64,000 nucleotides of DNA, taken from the IMG/VR virus record IMGVR_UViG_3300028886_000045, one strand, 5' to 3'. Every line of letters begins with the position of its first letter. Positions within the stretch are counted from its first letter, which is position 1. Shown in pieces: positions 12,040-60,612 of the stretch. This DNA is from a virus. Taxonomy: Duplodnaviria > Caudoviricetes. Position numbers and translations under genes: made by a program. The notes under the pieces were generated by a model. It was not told where the DNA came from. It worked only from the letters and a program-made list of their open reading frames with translations, and made no database searches.

Positions 12040-12993
12040 CTACAAACGCTTGAAACTTTCTATTTCTTCGTCTGTCATACCGAAATGCAAACCAAGCATT
12101 TCTATCTTATCATCCAACTCGCCCAACGCTTTCTTTCCAAAGTTTCGCAATTTCAAGAAATCCGTCTTATTATGTCTTACAACATCTTCTATTGTGTTGG
12201 CATCCGCATAATTAAGGCAATTCAGAACCCTAACGGAAAAGTTCATTTCCCTAACCCTTGTTTTCAGTAGTTGCACCTTTTCTATGTCATAGCCACTTAT
12301 AGCATATTCTGCCCTTGCGTTTTCGATTTTGACTTTATCCCCACGCTTTGCCAACTTTACCTTTTCACGCAACTCGTACTCGCAAAGCCTTTTCGCCAAC
12401 TTCTTTTGGTTCAGTTCCAAGGTGTGTATATGTTCCCTTTGTAGGATTGTCTTTCTTTTCAGTTCTTCACAACGCCTTTCCGTTTCTTGCAGTTCGCTAA
12501 TACGCTTTGATGCTTTCCGCAAAGTCTTAGCCAACCGAACCGTCATTAGTTGTCGTGATAGCCTCTGCAAACGCCTTGGGTTGTAGGTCTTTTGTGACGA
12601 AAAGAATTGTATCATCAAATCCATATAGTCATCATCAACCTTTATCCCCATGCCACTTATCACACTCATTAGGTCTTTCATCGCAGTCAGATAATAACCG
12701 CCCTTATCCCCCATAATCGCACGTTGCACCGACTGAATTTGTGCGTGATATTCATGGAGTTTCCGTGTTAGTTCTTCTCTGCTTTCCGCTATTGCATTAT
12801 CAAGTGTCGCAACCTCTTCGACCTTTGGCAGATTATCAAACATGGTTTCTTTGTCTATATACACCATGTTCCCAATCCGCTTTGTCTTGAAATAGCCCTT
12901 TTCTACATAGTTGGAAACCGTTTGGACTGAAACCCCCAATATATCCGCTACTTGCTTACGCCCTATATATGTAGCATTAATTGTTTTTGCCAT
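12040..12993 (-). CDS. HTH (excisionase/MerR-like) - coiled coil - RNA polymerase alpha C-terminal domain fusion
   Basis: N-term RKQVADILGVSVQTVSNYVEKG; C-term LLKTRVREMNFSVRVLNCL...FLKLRNFGKKALGEL...LGLHFGM; likely start MAKT at 12993. Confidence 0.85.
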   Translation of the reverse strand: MAKTINATYIGRKQVADILGVSVQTVSNYVEKGYFKTKRIGNMVYIDKETMFDNLPKVEEVATLDNAIAESREELTRKLHEYHAQIQSVQRAIMGDKGGYYLTAMKDLMSVISGMGIKVDDDYMDLMIQFFSSQKTYNPRRLQRLSRQLMTVRLAKTLRKASKRISELQETERRCEELKRKTILQREHIHTLELNQKKLAKRLCEYELREKVKLAKRGDKVKIENARAEYAISGYDIEKVQLLKTRVREMNFSVRVLNCLNYADANTIEDVVRHNKTDFLKLRNFGKKALGELDDKIEMLGLHFGMTDEEIESFKRL

Positions 12994-13797
12994 TCTTTCG
13001 CTTCTTTTTCCTTGCAAGGCGTTTCCGTTCATTGTAACGCGCACGCTCTTCGCTCGTCATGCTATCGTACCTTTCCTTTGCCTTGCGCTTGATTTCTTCT
13101 TTGTTCCTTTCGTAACGCCTTTTGTTATACGCCTTACGCTCCTCCTCCGACATAGCGGAATATGTAGCGTTTCCGTCATACCCCTTTTCCTTCTGCTTTA
13201 GATACACGGCATGACGATACAACCTTTTTTCCGTTGCTGACTTATTCGCCCTTCTTTCACGCGCCTTTTCCAACAACCTTTCCCTATTGGCTTCGTAGTA
13301 AGCCTTATTTAACTCCTTACGGTTTTTTTTCTGTTTCTGTGTCATTCTTTATCTGATTTTCCAACATCAGACGCAAAGCGGAAATATCGCTTTCCAACTC
13401 CGCGACCCTTTGCCGATTGTAACTTAAACTTGTTTGCTTTCCGCGTATCAAACGCCTTATCGCTTGCACTTTCTGCTTTTGGTCTTGGTTCATTATTCCT
13501 ATACCGAACCTTACACCATTTTCTTTTTCTGTTATCATATCTTAATTCTTAAAAGGTGGAACATCATTAACTATCGGTTTCTGTCGGCAAAATCCGCAAA
13601 GTCCCTTAGATAGTATTCACGCATTTTTTCCCCATGCTTCAACGCTATCCATTTTTTAGCAACCGCTAATGTTTCTTTACGCATATCTGCCAACAGACTC
13701 CTTACGTTGCTTGTGTGCACATAATAATCGCTATCTTTAGCATAGGTGCTTATCTCGTCCAAAGATTCAGCAACCTCTTCGATTCTGTTGTCTATGT

Positions 13798-41344: not shown

Positions 41345-41370
41345 GACCTTGTTATTCTCTCGGTCGTGAG
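41345..41370 (-). promoter_or_regulatory. Leader pseudoknot copy 13
   Basis: CUC AC GACC GA GAG AAUAACAA GGUC. Confidence 0.85.
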
Positions 41371-41534
41371 TTCTAAATTAACTTTGTTTCTTAATTACAA
41401 TGCAAAGGTACTGCTTTTTCTTGAAATATGCAAATTTTTCACCAACTTTTTTCTGCTTTTGTTGAAATTTTAACATTTCACCCCCATAAATAGCAAAAAA
41501 GATGCCCACAAACCTTGTGAGCACCTTATATATA

Positions 41535-50634: not shown

Positions 50635-50660
50635 GACCTTGTTATTCTCTCGGTCGTGAG
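50635..50660 (-). promoter_or_regulatory. Leader pseudoknot copy 19
   Basis: CUC AC GACC GA GAG AAUAACAA GGUC. Confidence 0.85.
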
Positions 50661-50772
50661 TTTTATTTGTTTAATACCTTTGTTTCTTAATCACAATGCA
50701 AAGGTACGAATATTTTTTGAACTTTGCAAATTTTTTGCCAACTTTTTTCATAAAAATACCAACTTTTACCAA

Positions 50773-50796
50773 TTTTGTAATGTGTAGATAGCAAAA
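50773..50796. promoter_or_regulatory. 24-bp palindromic upstream site
   Basis: ttttgtaat gtgtag atagcaaaa, 48 bp from the -33 box. Confidence 0.7.
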
Positions 50797-52179
50797 TAAA
50801 GGGATAATGCAAAAGCACCACCCCTTTTAATGTTTTTCTTCTCCCATCAACACTATCCTCTTATTAAAGTTATCCAACCAATAGTTTACAACAGAATACC
50901 CACCCATACACCCATTCCTATTAAACAAGCGCACCTCTAATGGATATTGCGGATGGCTTTCACACAACTCCTTCAGCCGTTTTGTGTAGAAATCGCTTTC
51001 GTTCCTTTCTTTCGGCTTTATGTATTCTGCAATAGAAGCGTAAACGAATATCACGTCTTCATATATTTTGAATCTGTCACACCTACCGAATGCCAACCAA
51101 CTTATATAAAGGGTCAAAGGGCGCGTTACCACCCCCATAAAGGAACATACGCACATTAAGGGAAACCCCACAATGTAGTACAATGACAACAGAAATCTTC
51201 TTAATACGTTCATGCCTACTTTATTCTGAAACTTGATTTTGAAAAGCCTACGGAATCACGCATATCATAATACGCACTAACCTCCCTTTTGCGATTTGCA
51301 AAAAGTCTATTATCCCTAAACCAAGGGTCTTGCCACGTTTTAGAACTATGGCTAAAATCGCACAGACAATACAAACCGCTACGCCTTGACCCTTTGTTAG
51401 CGTATGGCTTTCTGTGTTCTTTTCCGCTTTCTATCGCCTTGAATAACATTTTGAATCCCCCCAAAGTCTAATGCACAACTATCCCCTATTATCCGCACAT
51501 CTTTCCGCTTCCAATTTTTCATATCGTCTTTGTGCGTCCTTCATCGCGGAATCATACCCACACCTATATCCTATAAGTATGCCTACGAGAACGGCAATCA
51601 TACCGCTCATAACACCCAAAATTAAATATGCTACTGCCATTTTACCAACCTCCTAATTGTTTTATGAATTTATCTACCTTTTCGCACAATGCAACCTCGC
51701 ATTGACTGAATGGACATACTACCTTACAGAAAGCCTCTTGCGCTTTCCATTTATCTATCTTTTCTTGGTCTTGCGCACCTTTCTTGTAGGCTTCCAACAC
51801 AGACGAAACCCCATAGTCTTGTGAACTGTCTGCAAGTGCCACGTTGTACTTTTCGCTTTCTGCCCTATCCTTGATAGGAACATTCATATCCTTTCTTGTT
51901 ATCTTATCCATATCAACGCCTCTAATTTTTCCTTGAACGCCCTATAACTTGCGCACGTCCCCCTTTCCGCACATTCGGCAATTCTATCAATTATTGGGCA
52001 TTCAGCCAAACAATGCGCTTTAAGTGCCTTTTCCATTGCGTCCTTTGCACACTTTTCGTACCCTTGCACATAGGCTTCACGTTTCTTTATCTGCAAATCC
52101 ATCAAAGTGGTGTTTATATCCACTTCTGCATCTGCACCGATAATAGGGTATTTTTCCCTCGCATTCTGTTTTGCTAACT

Positions 52180-52608: not shown

Positions 52609-54264
52609 TTTCTTCTTCTTCTGCATCTTCAAACCAATCCAACAAAGTACCCGCGTCTTCGTTTCCGTCTTCGCGGTGCATTTGCTTGATAGTTTCAACA
52701 TCTACTTCGTCAAATTCAATCGAGGGCATATATTTGAATGAAGGTATGTATATCTTACCACAATCATATTCACCCACCGACATCCCATCTGTTGCACTTG
52801 CTATTGCTTCTAATAGCCTTTCACAAAGCAAACGGATATTTTTCTGTTTGTCTGACTGCTTTTCCATATCTACATTAAATAACTAAGGCGTTCTATCGTT
52901 TCCGAATCCACCCAATCATTAAATTTCCTACAACTTGTTTGGTGTAACCCCGTAGCCAAACGACCACAACAGCAAAACATACCACATTCATTAGAAAGTT
53001 CGTCAAACACATCTTTGCGTGTCTTGACAAACTCACCCAAATGTTCGCGCTTTAGGACTTCCAACTTTTCCGCTTTCTTCATGTCCATTCTGTGTCAATT
53101 TCAAACTCGGCTACACTATCTATGTAGTCATTTTCACTTCTCGTATAGCCCAAAAATTCACCATTTGCGAAATCCGCGTTTGTGAATGTAGGGGTCTTTC
53201 CGAAATTGTGATATTCGGCAAAACCTTCATCTTCGTGTAATATTTCCAATATCACATCACTTGTTTTTCTGTGTCTGTAATAATTGTAGTTATATACGGA
53301 TTTTGAAGGTATATGCTCGAAATCACGACTTACTATCTTATAGTGTGCCATACACTAACGCTGATGTGACGCGCACCACTCGTTTGCTTGTGTTACAGAC
53401 TTGAAACGCTTATCAATCACCTTTCCGTCTGCTTCCACGCGGAAATCACCCTTTCCCATCTTTACAATAGTAAGGTTATCGTACACCTCACCCTTTGGCT
53501 TGAAAACCGTTGGTGTTACAACTGCCTTTGGCTTCTCTATTGTAGGCAATACAACCGCCTTTGTAGCATTCTTTACATTTGTAGCAACTGACTTGCAGAA
53601 ATCCAAAGCCTCAGCGAGTGCCTTGTCTGCCTTACGCATTTTCTTGTTATTCATATTCTTATCTTTTGTTTTGTTTATTAAATATTGCTTCTATCTTATC
53701 GGCAACCTCTTGCGCTTCTTCTTTTGTACGAAAGTAATTACCTTTTTCATATCGTTTCGTATCAGAAATTCTGTATATGTCAAAATCGTAGTTTATGAAT
53801 ACATAATCATATACCCATACGAACCAATACAAACCGCCCTTTACGGCTCTCCATCTTTTTTCCATATACTTTTGTTTTTGTAAAGAAATCGCAAAGCGTG
53901 GCTCAAAGGTGCTTGGTTTTCACCCCAAACCGCTATGTAGGACTTCAAACCTCGTTTCCCCTTGCGATTTCTGTATTTTCTTTAATCGTTGAATACCAAT
54001 GTTGGCTTTAGTTCTTTGTATGTAAGATGTACCTTACGGCTTGAATACTTTCGGATAACCTTACCAACCACCTCGCCATTCAGCAAAATCTTGGTGTCCT
54101 TAATCCTATATCCTAACTTTAGAACATCGTAAACCTCACAAGGCATTACATTCTTGCTTGCATAGTTGGATTCAAAGCCGTTGAATCTGTTTACCTTATC
54201 TATGCCTTCGCATACATATTGCATTAACGCTTGCTTTACCTTGTTATCTACCATATTTATATAT

Positions 54265-54290
54265 GACCTTGTTATTCTCTCGGTCGTGAG
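54265..54290 (-). promoter_or_regulatory. Leader pseudoknot copy 20
   Basis: CUC AC GACC GA GAG AAUAACAA GGUC; 10 nt to ATG 54254. Confidence 0.85.
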
Positions 54291-54397
54291 TTCTAAAATT
54301 TGTCTTTGTTTTTAATTACAATGCAAAGATACTACATTTTTCTGATATTTGCAAATTTTTTGCCAACTTTTTTCGATAAATTACCAACTTTTACCAA

Positions 54398-54421
54398 TTT
54401 TGTAATCCCAACATGGCAATT
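54398..54421. promoter_or_regulatory. 24-bp palindromic upstream site
   Basis: ttttgtaat cccaac atggcaatt, 48 bp from the -33 box. Confidence 0.6.
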
Positions 54422-54426
54422 ACGCA

Positions 54427-54550
54427 TAAAAAAACGATGTAATCTTCACAGACTACACCGCTTTCCTTTAATTATATACCACGCTTTTCTCCGCTGAGAA
54501 AAGTAAATTAAAGAACCTATGATTAATTACTATTATATAACTACCTTTTC
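54427..54550 (-). ncRNA. Candidate small RNA (promoter to terminator, no ORF)
   Basis: Consensus promoter at about 54556-54608, GUGA-loop terminator at 54427-54461, internal hairpin cttttctc/gagaaaag. Confidence 0.6.
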
Positions 54551-54611
54551 TTGGTTGCAAAGGTACTGCTTTTTTCTGACACATACAAACTTTCTGCCAA
54601 CTTTTTTTTGA

Positions 54612-54787
54612 TAAAAAAAATTAGGCACTATCCTCTCGGATAATACCTAATCAATTCGACTCCAAATTACGTCTGAAAAAAGAAATATCTTATATTAACT
54701 AAAAACAGTATCTTTCAAAAAGTAAGGGGTATTTATCACAAATACCCCAAACCGCCTAAAATCCTAAATCATGAGTAAAATTCAAAT
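54612..54787 (-). ncRNA. Candidate small RNA(s) (promoter plus two terminator-like hairpins, no ORF)
   Basis: Promoter at about 54793-54845; hairpins at about 54726-54748 and 54620-54651, each followed by U-rich sequence. Confidence 0.6.
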
Positions 54788-55319
54788 CCCATTGCAAAGA
54801 TACAAACATTTTTTGTATTATGCAAATTTTCTGACAACTTTTTTTCAAAGCGTTTCCAACCGCTTGCAAAAAAAACGATAATCTCTACACGCCCCTTCCG
54901 CGCATACCCTCCCTACCTTTTTTCCGCAACGTGTCAAACAGAATGCATCCTTTGCCCTAAATATCATTTCCTCTATACAATCGCTGAATGTAGGTATGCG
55001 GTTGTTCCTTTCGGTAAACTTTGTGACATACGAGATTTCCCTTTCGGCTTGCTCATCCGTCAAGGCATCACACGCTTTCAGTCGGTTGGCTTCCATTTCT
55101 TCACCACGGAACTTATAGCCATCCTCGTACCCCTTGCGATAAATCTTTTCCTCGCTGTCCTTTCTTTTCAATTCTTCCATATTCTTTCAGATTAAAAATA
55201 TGCGCAACCGCAAAGTGTCACGCATACTAAAATAACATAAAATGACAAAATAGAATAACTTTGGTACAAAGGTACGTTTTTTTTCTGATTTATGCAAATT
55301 TTCTACCAACTTTTTGACA

Positions 55320-55426
55320 CAAAAAAAAAGATGTACATTCTCACGAATATACATCCCTATCGCCTAAATTAATTTTTTAGTGTCATCAAAAAAATTCTAA
55401 AACCTAAATATAAAATTATCTCTATG
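55320..55426 (-). ncRNA. Candidate small RNA (promoter to terminator, no ORF)
   Basis: Promoter at about 55432-55480; terminator gatgtacattc tcac gaatatacatc with A9 on the + strand. Confidence 0.6.
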
Positions 55427-55507
55427 TCACTTGCAAAGGTACGCTTTTTTATCCTACTATGCAAATTTTTTACCAACTTTCTTTTGTCTGCTACCAACTT
55501 TTACGGA

Positions 55508-55531
55508 TTTTGCTATCTACACATTACAAAA
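55508..55531. promoter_or_regulatory. 24-bp palindromic upstream site
   Basis: ttttgctat ctacac attacaaaa, 48 bp from the -33 box. Confidence 0.7.
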
Positions 55532-56558
55532 AAAGGTATCTACGCTCACGCGCAAATACCTCCCATTCAATAATTAATGTAACTGTGTAAATCAAAAAAT
55601 CAAAACAAAAGTATTATTCGGTATCATATATCCGCTCCCCTAACTTGGTTATTGCCATTTTAGCCACGGAATTATATTTGTCAAACAAACTTAGCGAATC
55701 CACACTACCATTTACAACCCATTCGCCTACGGAGATTAACAACGCCACGCACGCCACAATCACCTTAACCTCTAAATATACCATATATGCGATACAATAG
55801 TAAAGCACAAACAATATTCTTCTTATTATGCCGTTTATTCTTTTCATTCTTCTTATCCTTTCTGTACATCGCAACTATCCCTATCCTTGTAATAGCCACA
55901 CGCCTTATCTGTCACCTTTATAGTCTTAAATCCGCTATTGCTTCTTTTGCTTGGTAGCAACTCGCAACATTGCACGACCTTTGGACTGAACTCATTCAAT
56001 GCGAACCTTGCACGATACAAGCAAGTGCGACAATATTTCTGCTCCCCATTCTTCTGCTGTGGAACATCATCGAACAAAGACAACTCCTTACACATACACT
56101 ACACCCCCTTTTCTTCTTTTAAGGCTTTTGCGACTTCACCACCACGGAAACGCGATTTGTTCTCGCTTATCCATTCGCAGAACTTTTCACTCATATCTGA
56201 CGCGCCCTTTTCGTAAGCCTCCTTTATCATACTATAAATAGTGTCGGAACGATATGGTAACGCCTTCATCATATCGTCTGCATACTTTGTTGCCATTTCA
56301 CTTATTCGTGCCATACTTCTTTGCCCTTTTTATCCCTTTTCGCTTACGTTCTTTTCCATAACCGCTAAAATTCAACCGTAACTTTCACTTTCTTTATTTC
56401 TACCTTTTCCCCCTCGCTTACCATTCTGGCTATACGCATAGCCAAACTTCTAAACTTAAAGAACTTTGCGTATTCCAAATCTTCTGAGAATGCAAAATGT
56501 GGTGTATAAAACATTCCATCAGAACGCTCTATAATCCACCGCGTCAATTCCTTTTTTG

Positions 56559-59269: not shown

Positions 59270-60612
59270 CCACAGTATATTAAAATTTGAACAAACTTAT
59301 CTGTTCGTTATTAACTTCTTGCTTCAACCTACCACTACTTTTTAGGTGGTAAAACCACGTTCATCCATAGTCGGATAGTCCGCAAGCGTAAATTTGGGTG
59401 TACTGCACCCTATTATTCTTAAACCCTCGTCAAGTATATTCAATGCTGCATTGTAGTCCCTTTCAACCACTTCACCACATTGGGAACAAACCCATCGTCT
59501 GTCATTTAATGTGAGGCTTTTGTTGATGTAGCCACAATTATGACACGTTTTACTTGATGGGTAAAACCTATCAACAAACACTATCTTTCGGTTATACCAC
59601 CGTGCCTTGTATTCAAGCATCCTACGAAACTCGCCAAAATTCATTTCACAGATACTTTCAGCAAGGTTGTGGTTTTTAACCATTCCTTTCACGTTCAAGT
59701 CTTCCATACATATGACTTGGTTTTCGTCAATGAGTGAATTACTTACTGCGTGGAGATAGTATTGCTTCCTATCGTTTATCTTCTTATATGTTTTTGCAAG
59801 CCTTATCCTTGCCTTGTTTCTGTTGTTACTTCCTTTTCGTTTCCTTGCCAACTGACATTGTAGCCTCTTAATCTTCTTTGTCTCAGGCTTCTTAAAATGA
59901 AGATTTTTGAATACTTCTCCGTCACTTGTTATCACAAAGTCCTTAATACCTAAATCTATGCCAACGGCAGACTTTGTTTCTTTTACCTTATGCGTCAAAT
60001 CACCGTCAACCAATATTGACAAATAATATTCGCCACATGGTAGTCTTGTTAATGTTGCTTGCTTTATATTGTCGTGATGTTTCTGCAAATACTGAGCATA
60101 TTTCTCATTACATCTGAACTTGACATTTCTTATATTAGCAAGTGAAAGATGATATGTTGTATAGTCGTTACGTTTGGATATTGCACCAAGTTCAAATCTG
60201 CAACTTTGCTTGTTGTCGTGCTTTGACTTGAATTTAGGAAATCCATTATGCTTTTCAAAGAAATTATTGTATGCTGACAACATATCTTTCACGGCTTGTT
60301 TGAGAACCTTTGTATTCTGTTCTCTAAGCCAAATGAAATTATCATCCTTCAATAGTTCGTGATGTACAAACAGCCCAAGCGTAGAAAGGTTTTCCGATTT
60401 ACCGTCATTCTTGTATGATTCAATCTTTCTGTTAAGGCATTGGTTATAGACAACACGGTAGCAACCAAGCAACTTGCTTATCATTGTTGCTTGCTCCTTG
60501 TTTGGATATAATCGTATCTTTACCGCCCTTAACATTGCTTTTGACTTTTATTTCCCTTATTTTACTAAAATGTTCAATTTTGTTCAAATATTTATTTTGC
60601 TATTAAGTACAC
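59270..60612 (-). mobile_element. Non-autonomous IS607-like element carrying only tnpB
   Basis: GG at both junctions, TTTGAACAAA motif inverted near the two ends, and removal restores an in-frame ORF; no tnpA inside. Confidence 0.75.
59342..60535 (-). CDS. tnpB: RNA-guided endonuclease TnpB
   Basis: N-term KIRLYPNKEQ HTH, RuvC GIDLG / MEDL / RDYNAA, Zn finger CHNC...CSQC. Confidence 0.95.
   Translation of the reverse strand: MLRAVKIRLYPNKEQATMISKLLGCYRVVYNQCLNRKIESYKNDGKSENLSTLGLFVHHELLKDDNFIWLREQNTKVLKQAVKDMLSAYNNFFEKHNGFPKFKSKHDNKQSCRFELGAISKRNDYTTYHLSLANIRNVKFRCNEKYAQYLQKHHDNIKQATLTRLPCGEYYLSILVDGDLTHKVKETKSAVGIDLGIKDFVITSDGEVFKNLHFKKPETKKIKRLQCQLARKRKGSNNRNKARIRLAKTYKKINDRKQYYLHAVSNSLIDENQVICMEDLNVKGMVKNHNLAESICEMNFGEFRRMLEYKARWYNRKIVFVDRFYPSSKTCHNCGYINKSLTLNDRRWVCSQCGEVVERDYNAALNILDEGLRIIGCSTPKFTLADYPTMDERGFTT

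Follow-up and report, generated by a model that had tools for sequence, protein, structure and literature searches.

The promoter-terminator array and its surroundings

The window, by which we mean the whole stretch of 64,000 nucleotides that was analysed, corresponds to bases 50343-114342, read on the reverse strand, of a virus record that is 178,667 bp long and has an estimated completeness of 96%. Nearly all genes lie on its minus strand, including every gene close to the locus described here, and the contigs of its relatives come from gut metagenomes of cattle and other ruminants. Within ~1.2 kb (54318-55562), five standard promoters of ~60 nt and six terminator-like hairpins follow one another, all on the minus strand, against a genome-wide density of about one per 4 kb for promoters and for terminator-like hairpins alike. 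The array region has a GC content of 33% compared with 40% for the genome, the proteins flanking it are ORFans and, as an earlier note on this DNA had stated, it contains only one ORF, ORF111 (55180-54845). The features, in minus-strand order, are:

55533-55562, minus strand: T0 terminator, 13-bp stem with GUGA loop and U-tract, which ends the upstream ~3.4-kb early operon; compensatory changes in the distant relative L010
55482-55532, minus strand: untranscribed spacer ahead of P1; contains another AAGTTGG box, in phase, and a 25-nt element; inter-lineage conservation z 7.9
55428-55481, minus strand: P1 promoter, with AAGTTGG box, -33 TTTG and -7 TACCTTTG
55320-55427, minus strand: U1, ORF-less unit of ~108 nt; terminator T1 with stem 55356-55329, GUGA loop and U9
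55261-55315, minus strand: P2 promoter, repeat plus promoter pattern
55181-55260, minus strand: ORF111 leader, U-rich, with the terminator-like hairpin hp2 (55226-55199) followed by U5, 18 nt before the ATG; conserved in L010
54845-55180, minus strand: ORF111, 111 aa, the sole real ORF inside the array; member of a wide family
54789-54844, minus strand: P3 promoter, repeat plus promoter pattern
54611-54788, minus strand: U2, ORF-less unit of ~178 nt; terminator T3b at 54652-54619, GAGA loop and U8
54691-54748, minus strand: U2 core common to the distant lineage, with an internal GUGA hairpin (54748-54726) and a mostly unpaired stretch; candidate seed
54552-54610, minus strand: P4 promoter, repeat plus promoter pattern
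54427-54551, minus strand: U3, ORF-less unit of ~125 nt; terminator T4 at 54461-54434, GUGA loop and U7
54372-54433, minus strand: untranscribed spacer ahead of P5; contains additional AAGTTGG-like boxes with a phasing of 10 and 21 nt; inter-lineage z 4.5
54318-54371, minus strand: P5 promoter, which starts the downstream ~3.5-kb operon
54255-54317, minus strand: canonical leader of ORF90 (54254-53982), A-rich with a pseudoknot, in contrast to the units

Promoters, leaders and upstream boxes

Five copies of a 60-nt direct repeat are found between 54314 and 55483. In minus-strand orientation, they all carry an AAGTTGG box, a TTTG at -33 and a TAnnTTTG at -7, the last two separated by 20 nt, an arrangement that corresponds to the Bacteroidota sigma-A consensus. 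The TTTG-N(20)-TAnnTTTG cores lie on the minus strand at 55465-55434, 55298-55267, 54826-54795 and 54589-54558; the four consensus promoters placed by the earlier note at about 54556, 54793, 55265 and 55432 are thus all real, minus-strand and of Bacteroidota type, and a fifth core was found nearby at 54355-54324 on the same strand, slightly beyond the range given before. The Bacteroidota promoter pattern matches the window 29 times where 3.5 matches are expected, 27 of the 29 being on the minus strand, and the upstream AAGTTGG element matches 31 times against 1.7 expected. A sigma-70 scan, in contrast, remained at chance (22 matches, 18.2 expected), from which we conclude that the promoters are real but of the Bacteroidota class, a promoter type that points to a Bacteroidota host, probably Prevotella or some other member of the Bacteroidales. 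The whole genome holds ~45 good promoter copies, and the element precedes ~40 phage genes.

Downstream of the -7 box, most promoters of this phage have a conserved A-rich leader that starts CATTGTAATTAA, with the ATG ~62 nt from the predicted start. Such canonical leaders (for example at 54255-54317, 50660-50730 and 41370-41434, minus strand) contain a hairpin whose loop pairs with an upstream triplet in a covarying pseudoknot that ends ~9 nt before the ATG; the covariation comprises CUC/GAG, CCC/GGG and CAC/GUG, with stems GACC/GGUC or GGCU/AGCC. P1, P3 and P4 are without a canonical A-rich leader.

The spacers at 55482-55532 and 54372-54433 are probably regulator-binding sites, judging from their alignment between lineages, in which they are better conserved than the unit bodies. 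Their extra AAGTTGG-like boxes, upstream of P1 and P5, are phased at ~10 and 21 nt. Comparable upstream boxes are also found at ordinary gene promoters. A 25-nt element at 50773-50797, within the locus ~50745-50800, recurs inverted and 100% identical at 55507-55531. Elsewhere in the window, a 334-aa ORF (12040-13044, minus strand) encodes an HTH_17 domain at its N-terminus (E 3e-7) together with the C-terminal domain of RNA polymerase alpha (E 1.8e-15), and its product is a candidate reader of the AAGTTGG box upstream of the ~45 phage promoters.

Terminator-like hairpins

A scan of the whole genome for hairpins followed by T-tracts returned 43 terminator-like sites on the array strand, six of which (55562-55533, 55356-55329, 55226-55199, 54752-54722, 54652-54619 and 54461-54434) fall within 1.13 kb, compared with ~0.3 expected. 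The earlier note had described five or six GNRA-type hairpins with U-tracts; the count stands at six terminator-like hairpins, while GNRA tetraloops are confined to four of them (GUGA three times, GAGA once). GNRA loops are frequent among the terminators of this phage overall (~11/43). The distance from promoter to strong hairpin plus U-tract is 61-117 nt, with P1, P3 and P4 meeting a strong terminator after 98, 66 (or ~170) and 117 nt, respectively, and the gaps to the following promoters are short (15 nt from T1 to P2, 14 nt from T3b to P4). Genome-wide, a terminator is followed by a promoter within 110 nt at 16 of the 43 sites, and the organisation of the phage genome by terminator-promoter cassettes resembles that by promoter-early stem-loop (PeSL) cassettes. 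A further putative terminator within the 3′ end of ORF111 (~54905-54868) was rejected, as its T-run encodes a conserved YRFFCK motif.

ORF111

The protein encoded by ORF111 has no Pfam or PHROG match. Its central domain (~residues 15-85) has 341 homologues at E<=0.001 in a library of 1.8 billion proteins, often as the C-terminal part of longer proteins, and is, by these matches, a widespread phage domain. Remote homologues of ORF111 stand in gap-free gene rows with no array, and the array is therefore not a companion of this gene. The hairpin hp2 in its leader may act as an attenuator or as a 5′ stabiliser of the ORF111 mRNA.

The ORF-less units

No ORF begins past the predicted transcription start in U1, U2 or U3, and the micro-ORFs that touch the units have just 5-7 codons or start upstream of the transcription start, none of them being conserved. 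The earlier note had proposed three U-rich non-coding units of 65-175 nt. They are indeed ORF-less, with lengths of ~108, ~178 and ~125 nt (~66 nt for the U2 RNA if the internal hairpin terminates), but U-richness is clear only for U2 and the bodies are better termed "not A-rich": their T-A skew ranges from -0.09 to +0.26, against -0.41 +/- 0.17 in 38 mRNA leaders. The predicted folds are well below those of shuffled sequences (MFE z of -2.3 for U1, -5.8 for U2 and -4.6 for U3).

The three bodies are unique and mutually unrelated rather than paralogous. Searches for coding remnants or paralogues, by tblastx and blastn against the genome and its relatives, gave self or orthologous matches only, and decayed genes were rejected as the origin of the units on this ground. 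The sole other ORF-less promoter-terminator unit of the genome (G000:C1:8961-9240, outside the window) is a tRNA gene with a CAU anticodon, driven directly by a standard promoter and followed by two terminators; this phage thus does employ the promoter-terminator design for a real RNA gene. A TTTAGG motif enriched in the array (four copies, P<0.001) is absent in L010 and for this reason was not treated as functional.

Conservation in close and distant relatives

The relatives, obtained through a large protein database, fall into lineage A, the close variants L014, L015 and L017-L022 with 92-99% DNA identity, and lineage B, the single distant relative L010 (a 187.9-kb contig, to which L011-L013 are identical), so that the cross-lineage comparison is one of two lineages, that of the window and that of L010. 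Three other sequences (L009, L023 and L024) are unrelated. The ORF111 homologue in L010 is 56% identical and the flanking genes are 46-70% identical at the DNA level. The order of elements in L010 matches that of the window throughout: T0, P1-U1-T1, P2-hairpin-ORF, P3-U2-T, P4-U3-T and P5-canonical leader, ahead of the ORF90 homologue. The comparison with a related phage that the earlier note had called for shows the units kept ORF-less in L010, with no ORFs at the unit positions; small overlapping ORFs in these slots are not conserved. The terminator stems stay paired between window and L010 through compensatory changes, and none of the five recombination-prone 60-nt direct promoter repeats has been lost in either lineage.

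The transcribed bodies are weakly conserved between lineages, less so than the untranscribed spacers upstream of P1 and P5 (z 7.9 and 4.5). A core of ~58 nt in U2 is common to both (local alignment P=0.012), with an unpaired probability of 0.60 in the window and 0.46 in L010 against 0.33 for the whole window U2 RNA. For U1 there is no significant similarity to L010 (P=0.23), nor is there any for U3 (P=0.94), the body of which measures 90 nt in the window and 26 nt in L010.

Among close strains, the window and L015 differ at 55 of 1017 third codon positions (5.4%) and at four of the 301 positions of U2 plus U3 (1.3%), a difference that is significant against all third positions (Fisher P=0.0013) and against the two flanking ORFs (P=0.0012). 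Compared with the less diverged downstream genes alone, it is not significant (P=0.16), and the strain-level constraint on U2 and U3 may consequently reflect mosaic history. U1 is a hotspot between close strains, with 13 of 108 positions differing, which is above synonymous sites; indels and substitutions cluster around a T-run in its mid-body (55378-55395), and the promoter and upstream spacer are 100% identical.

Further relatives were sought among viral contigs with the three flanking proteins, the ORF111 alignment and two terminator patterns, and among metagenome contigs with the ORF111 alignment and one terminator pattern; neither search returned any. A phage database yielded only a 74-nt promoter-like match.

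Searches for known RNAs and for pairing partners

At Rfam 15 gathering thresholds the window contains three tRNAs, all outside the array, and the array itself has no match; with the threshold relaxed to E<=10 the best match in the array region reached 24 bits with E>0.6, and ARAGORN found no tRNA there. Duplex energies of U1-U3 with 319 phage start regions and 49 promoter-proximal leaders equalled those of shuffled controls, leaving the idea that the RNAs act against start codons of the phage unsupported beyond base composition. Against leaders inside the array, no pair beat shuffles in both lineages, a 12-bp match of U2 to the P5 leader was within chance, and pairing of the P4 CI kind inside the array was found in no case in both lineages. 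The antisense role suggested in the earlier note is accordingly not borne out for phage start regions, leaders or in-array leaders.

Comparison with known systems

PeSL cassettes have been described in T4-type phages (Arbiol et al. 2010, PMC2839356; Comeau et al. 2014, PMC4122927). As in those cassettes, small ORFans of a large lytic-type phage are separated by a repeated module in which a terminator stem-loop and an AT-rich stretch precede a strong early promoter of the host type. In contrast to PeSLs, which flank protein-coding ORFans, the array cassettes enclose non-coding bodies of 60-180 nt that are kept in two lineages; PeSL-like cassettes elsewhere in this genome do flank genes, whereas those of U1-U3 do not. 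Furthermore, the array promoter is of the Bacteroidota type rather than sigma-70 and the stem-loops are not sequence-conserved repeats. PeSLs belong to T4-type phages, which the present phage resembles in cassette design. They mediate homologous recombination and give rise to indels and mini-circles, and recombination between two PeSLs removes the ORFan and leaves one chimeric cassette (PMC2839356); at the array, the two lineages compared have the same layout. Since such a deletion leaves a single cassette and not a unique body of 60-180 nt, an origin of the units as empty cassettes, the alternative raised in the earlier note, is disfavoured; the lack of coding remnants weakens it further, although two of the three bodies still show no detectable cross-lineage conservation.

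Among host RNAs, the closest parallel is with the FopS and GibS sRNAs of Bacteroides thetaiotaomicron (Ruttiger et al. 2025, PMC11697453; Rfam RF04319 and RF04182), which occur in multiple copies and of which a FopS-like sequence has been reported in a phage (PMC11697453). The units share with them a canonical Bacteroidota sigma-A promoter, an unpaired region, a Rho-independent terminator and the absence of an ORF. FopS and GibS pair with the translation-initiation regions of their targets and bind RbpB; the units showed no excess of pairing with start regions of the phage. They differ in being unrelated to each other and in having no common 5′ seed. The Rfam models comprise a conserved R1 seed and a terminator; the FopS model (RF04319) gave no array match at E<=10, and the best GibS score (RF04182) was 19.7 bits with E=7, against a gathering score of 115.

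Short ORF-less phage transcripts made from a promoter and a nearby intrinsic terminator include the lambda pR'-tR' 6S RNA, oop RNA, P22 sar, P1 c4 and P4 CI, which either have a neighbouring or overlapping target in the phage or mark a late operon that depends on Q. The array units resemble lambda pR'-tR' in their succession of promoter and terminator around a short ORF-less RNA, but the operon downstream of the array has its own promoter, P5, with a canonical leader. Unlike P4 CI, P1 c4 and P22 sar, the array RNAs showed no complementarity to neighbouring leaders, no pair lying below shuffles in both lineages.

Transcriptomics of large virulent phages has also revealed small non-coding RNAs, reportedly by dRNA-seq in phiKZ (PMC8244752) and by ONT-cappable-seq in Pseudomonas phages (PMC10914365), most of them without an assigned function. 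These RNAs were found experimentally, whereas the array units are predicted, belong to a Bacteroidota phage and are built as standardised cassettes arranged in tandem.

Interpretation of the array

The layout of the array is kept unit for unit in L010, where the flanking genes share only 46-70% identity and the terminator stems have changed in a compensatory way, which argues that the phage maintains the units. That three units with unique bodies persist in two lineages despite five direct repeats, with their terminators kept by compensation, favours stand-alone RNA genes. We put at about even the chance that U1, U2 and U3 are stand-alone short non-coding transcription units, candidate small-RNA genes of the phage carried in PeSL-like cassettes. 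The earlier proposal that the phage maintains strong promoters for small RNAs gains from the layout in L010, from the compensatory stems and from the tRNA precedent; the U1 and U3 bodies show no significant cross-lineage conservation.

If so, the units, which sit between two early operons and consist of a standard early-type promoter and strong intrinsic terminators, would be transcribed by the host Bacteroidota sigma-A RNA polymerase, starting a few nt downstream of each TAnnTTTG box. The polymerase would stop at the next GNRA-capped hairpin and U-tract, releasing non-coding RNAs of ~108, 178 and 125 nt. From this arrangement we infer transcription and discrete RNA ends, and any target or effect is likewise put forward conditionally. 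Of the three, U2 is the strongest candidate for a functioning regulatory RNA and the likeliest to have a sequence-dependent role. Its RNA would comprise a variable 5′ region, the internal GUGA hairpin, a mostly unpaired stretch of ~25 nt common to both lineages (possibly the seed) and the terminator, and its likeliest action would be base-pairing with host mRNAs near their start codons, in the manner of the host FopS and GibS sRNAs.

The main rival reading, a serious one although less likely in our view, is that the bodies are functionless spacers in regulatory cassettes, the modules serving to insulate early operons or to act as PeSL-like recombination linkers and the RNAs being by-products. 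Terminator-promoter cassettes do occur genome-wide (16 of 43 terminators), the conserved parts of the array are its promoters, terminators and untranscribed spacers, the U1 and U3 bodies are unconserved between lineages, U3 being 64 nt shorter in L010, and the strain-level constraint is not robust to regional mosaicism. However, one terminator suffices to insulate an operon, and three promoters firing into terminators would add nothing, yet both lineages retain all of them; PeSL recombination should, moreover, collapse tandem repeats to one cassette (PMC2839356), and U2 retains a significant core. It is improbable, in our view, that the array is a conditional termination device in which transcription from the promoters runs into terminators early in infection, until a phage factor permits read-through to ORF111 and the downstream operon, as lambda Q does. 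This would account for the terminator-like hairpin, hp2 included, that each of P1-P4 meets before any coding sequence, and a promoter followed by a short, terminated ORF-less RNA is the textbook signature of lambda pR'-tR'. Read-through is not needed, however, because P5, a standard promoter with its own leader, precedes the downstream operon. The search for RNA-RNA pairing within the array found none, no gene for an antiterminator was identified, and a nut- or put-like site would keep its sequence between lineages, which the promoter-proximal RNA does not.

Still less probable, we believe, is a mainly DNA-level element, either a binding hub for a phage transcription factor or a transcription-activated origin, at which the promoters would act by binding or unwinding and not through RNA. 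The best-conserved non-coding stretches are indeed untranscribed and contain phased AAGTTGG boxes and the recurring 25-nt element, the phage HTH plus alpha-CTD protein could bind such sites, and the array is AT-rich (33% GC vs 40%). Against this, similar upstream boxes are found at ordinary gene promoters, and strong terminators with compensatory evolution point to selection on RNA 3′ ends. GC skew was uninformative, with no inflection at the array, and lends no support to a replication origin there.

Returning to stand-alone RNA genes, a broader and unlikely extension is that large phages of Bacteroidota carry exchangeable series of early small-RNA genes, the RNAs of which reprogramme the cell by base-pairing with host mRNAs or by binding to an RNA-binding protein of the host. 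A standard promoter and a standard GNRA-capped terminator would then enclose a fast-evolving body, and the turnover of bodies as hosts change would explain why the architecture is conserved and the sequence diverged.

Neither small RNAs encoded by phages nor PeSL cassettes are new; in the literature that we searched, we found no Bacteroidota phage in which standardised ORF-less cassettes are arranged in tandem. Should the units prove to be expressed and active, no small regulatory RNAs of a Bacteroidota phage would have been described before them. They would then show that PeSL-like cassettes can carry RNA genes besides ORFans, and would offer a way into the question of how phages of the rumen and gut seize control of hosts in which Hfq and ProQ are absent. 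Should they be inert, they would be a clear case of promoter-terminator cassettes maintained with no cargo. In either case, the compact promoters and terminators could serve as parts for Bacteroides and Prevotella genetics. A separate feature of the same early region is a TnpB-like ORF (window 59342-60535, minus strand) with OrfB_IS605, Cas12f1-like TNB and HTH domains, inserted ~4 kb upstream of the array.
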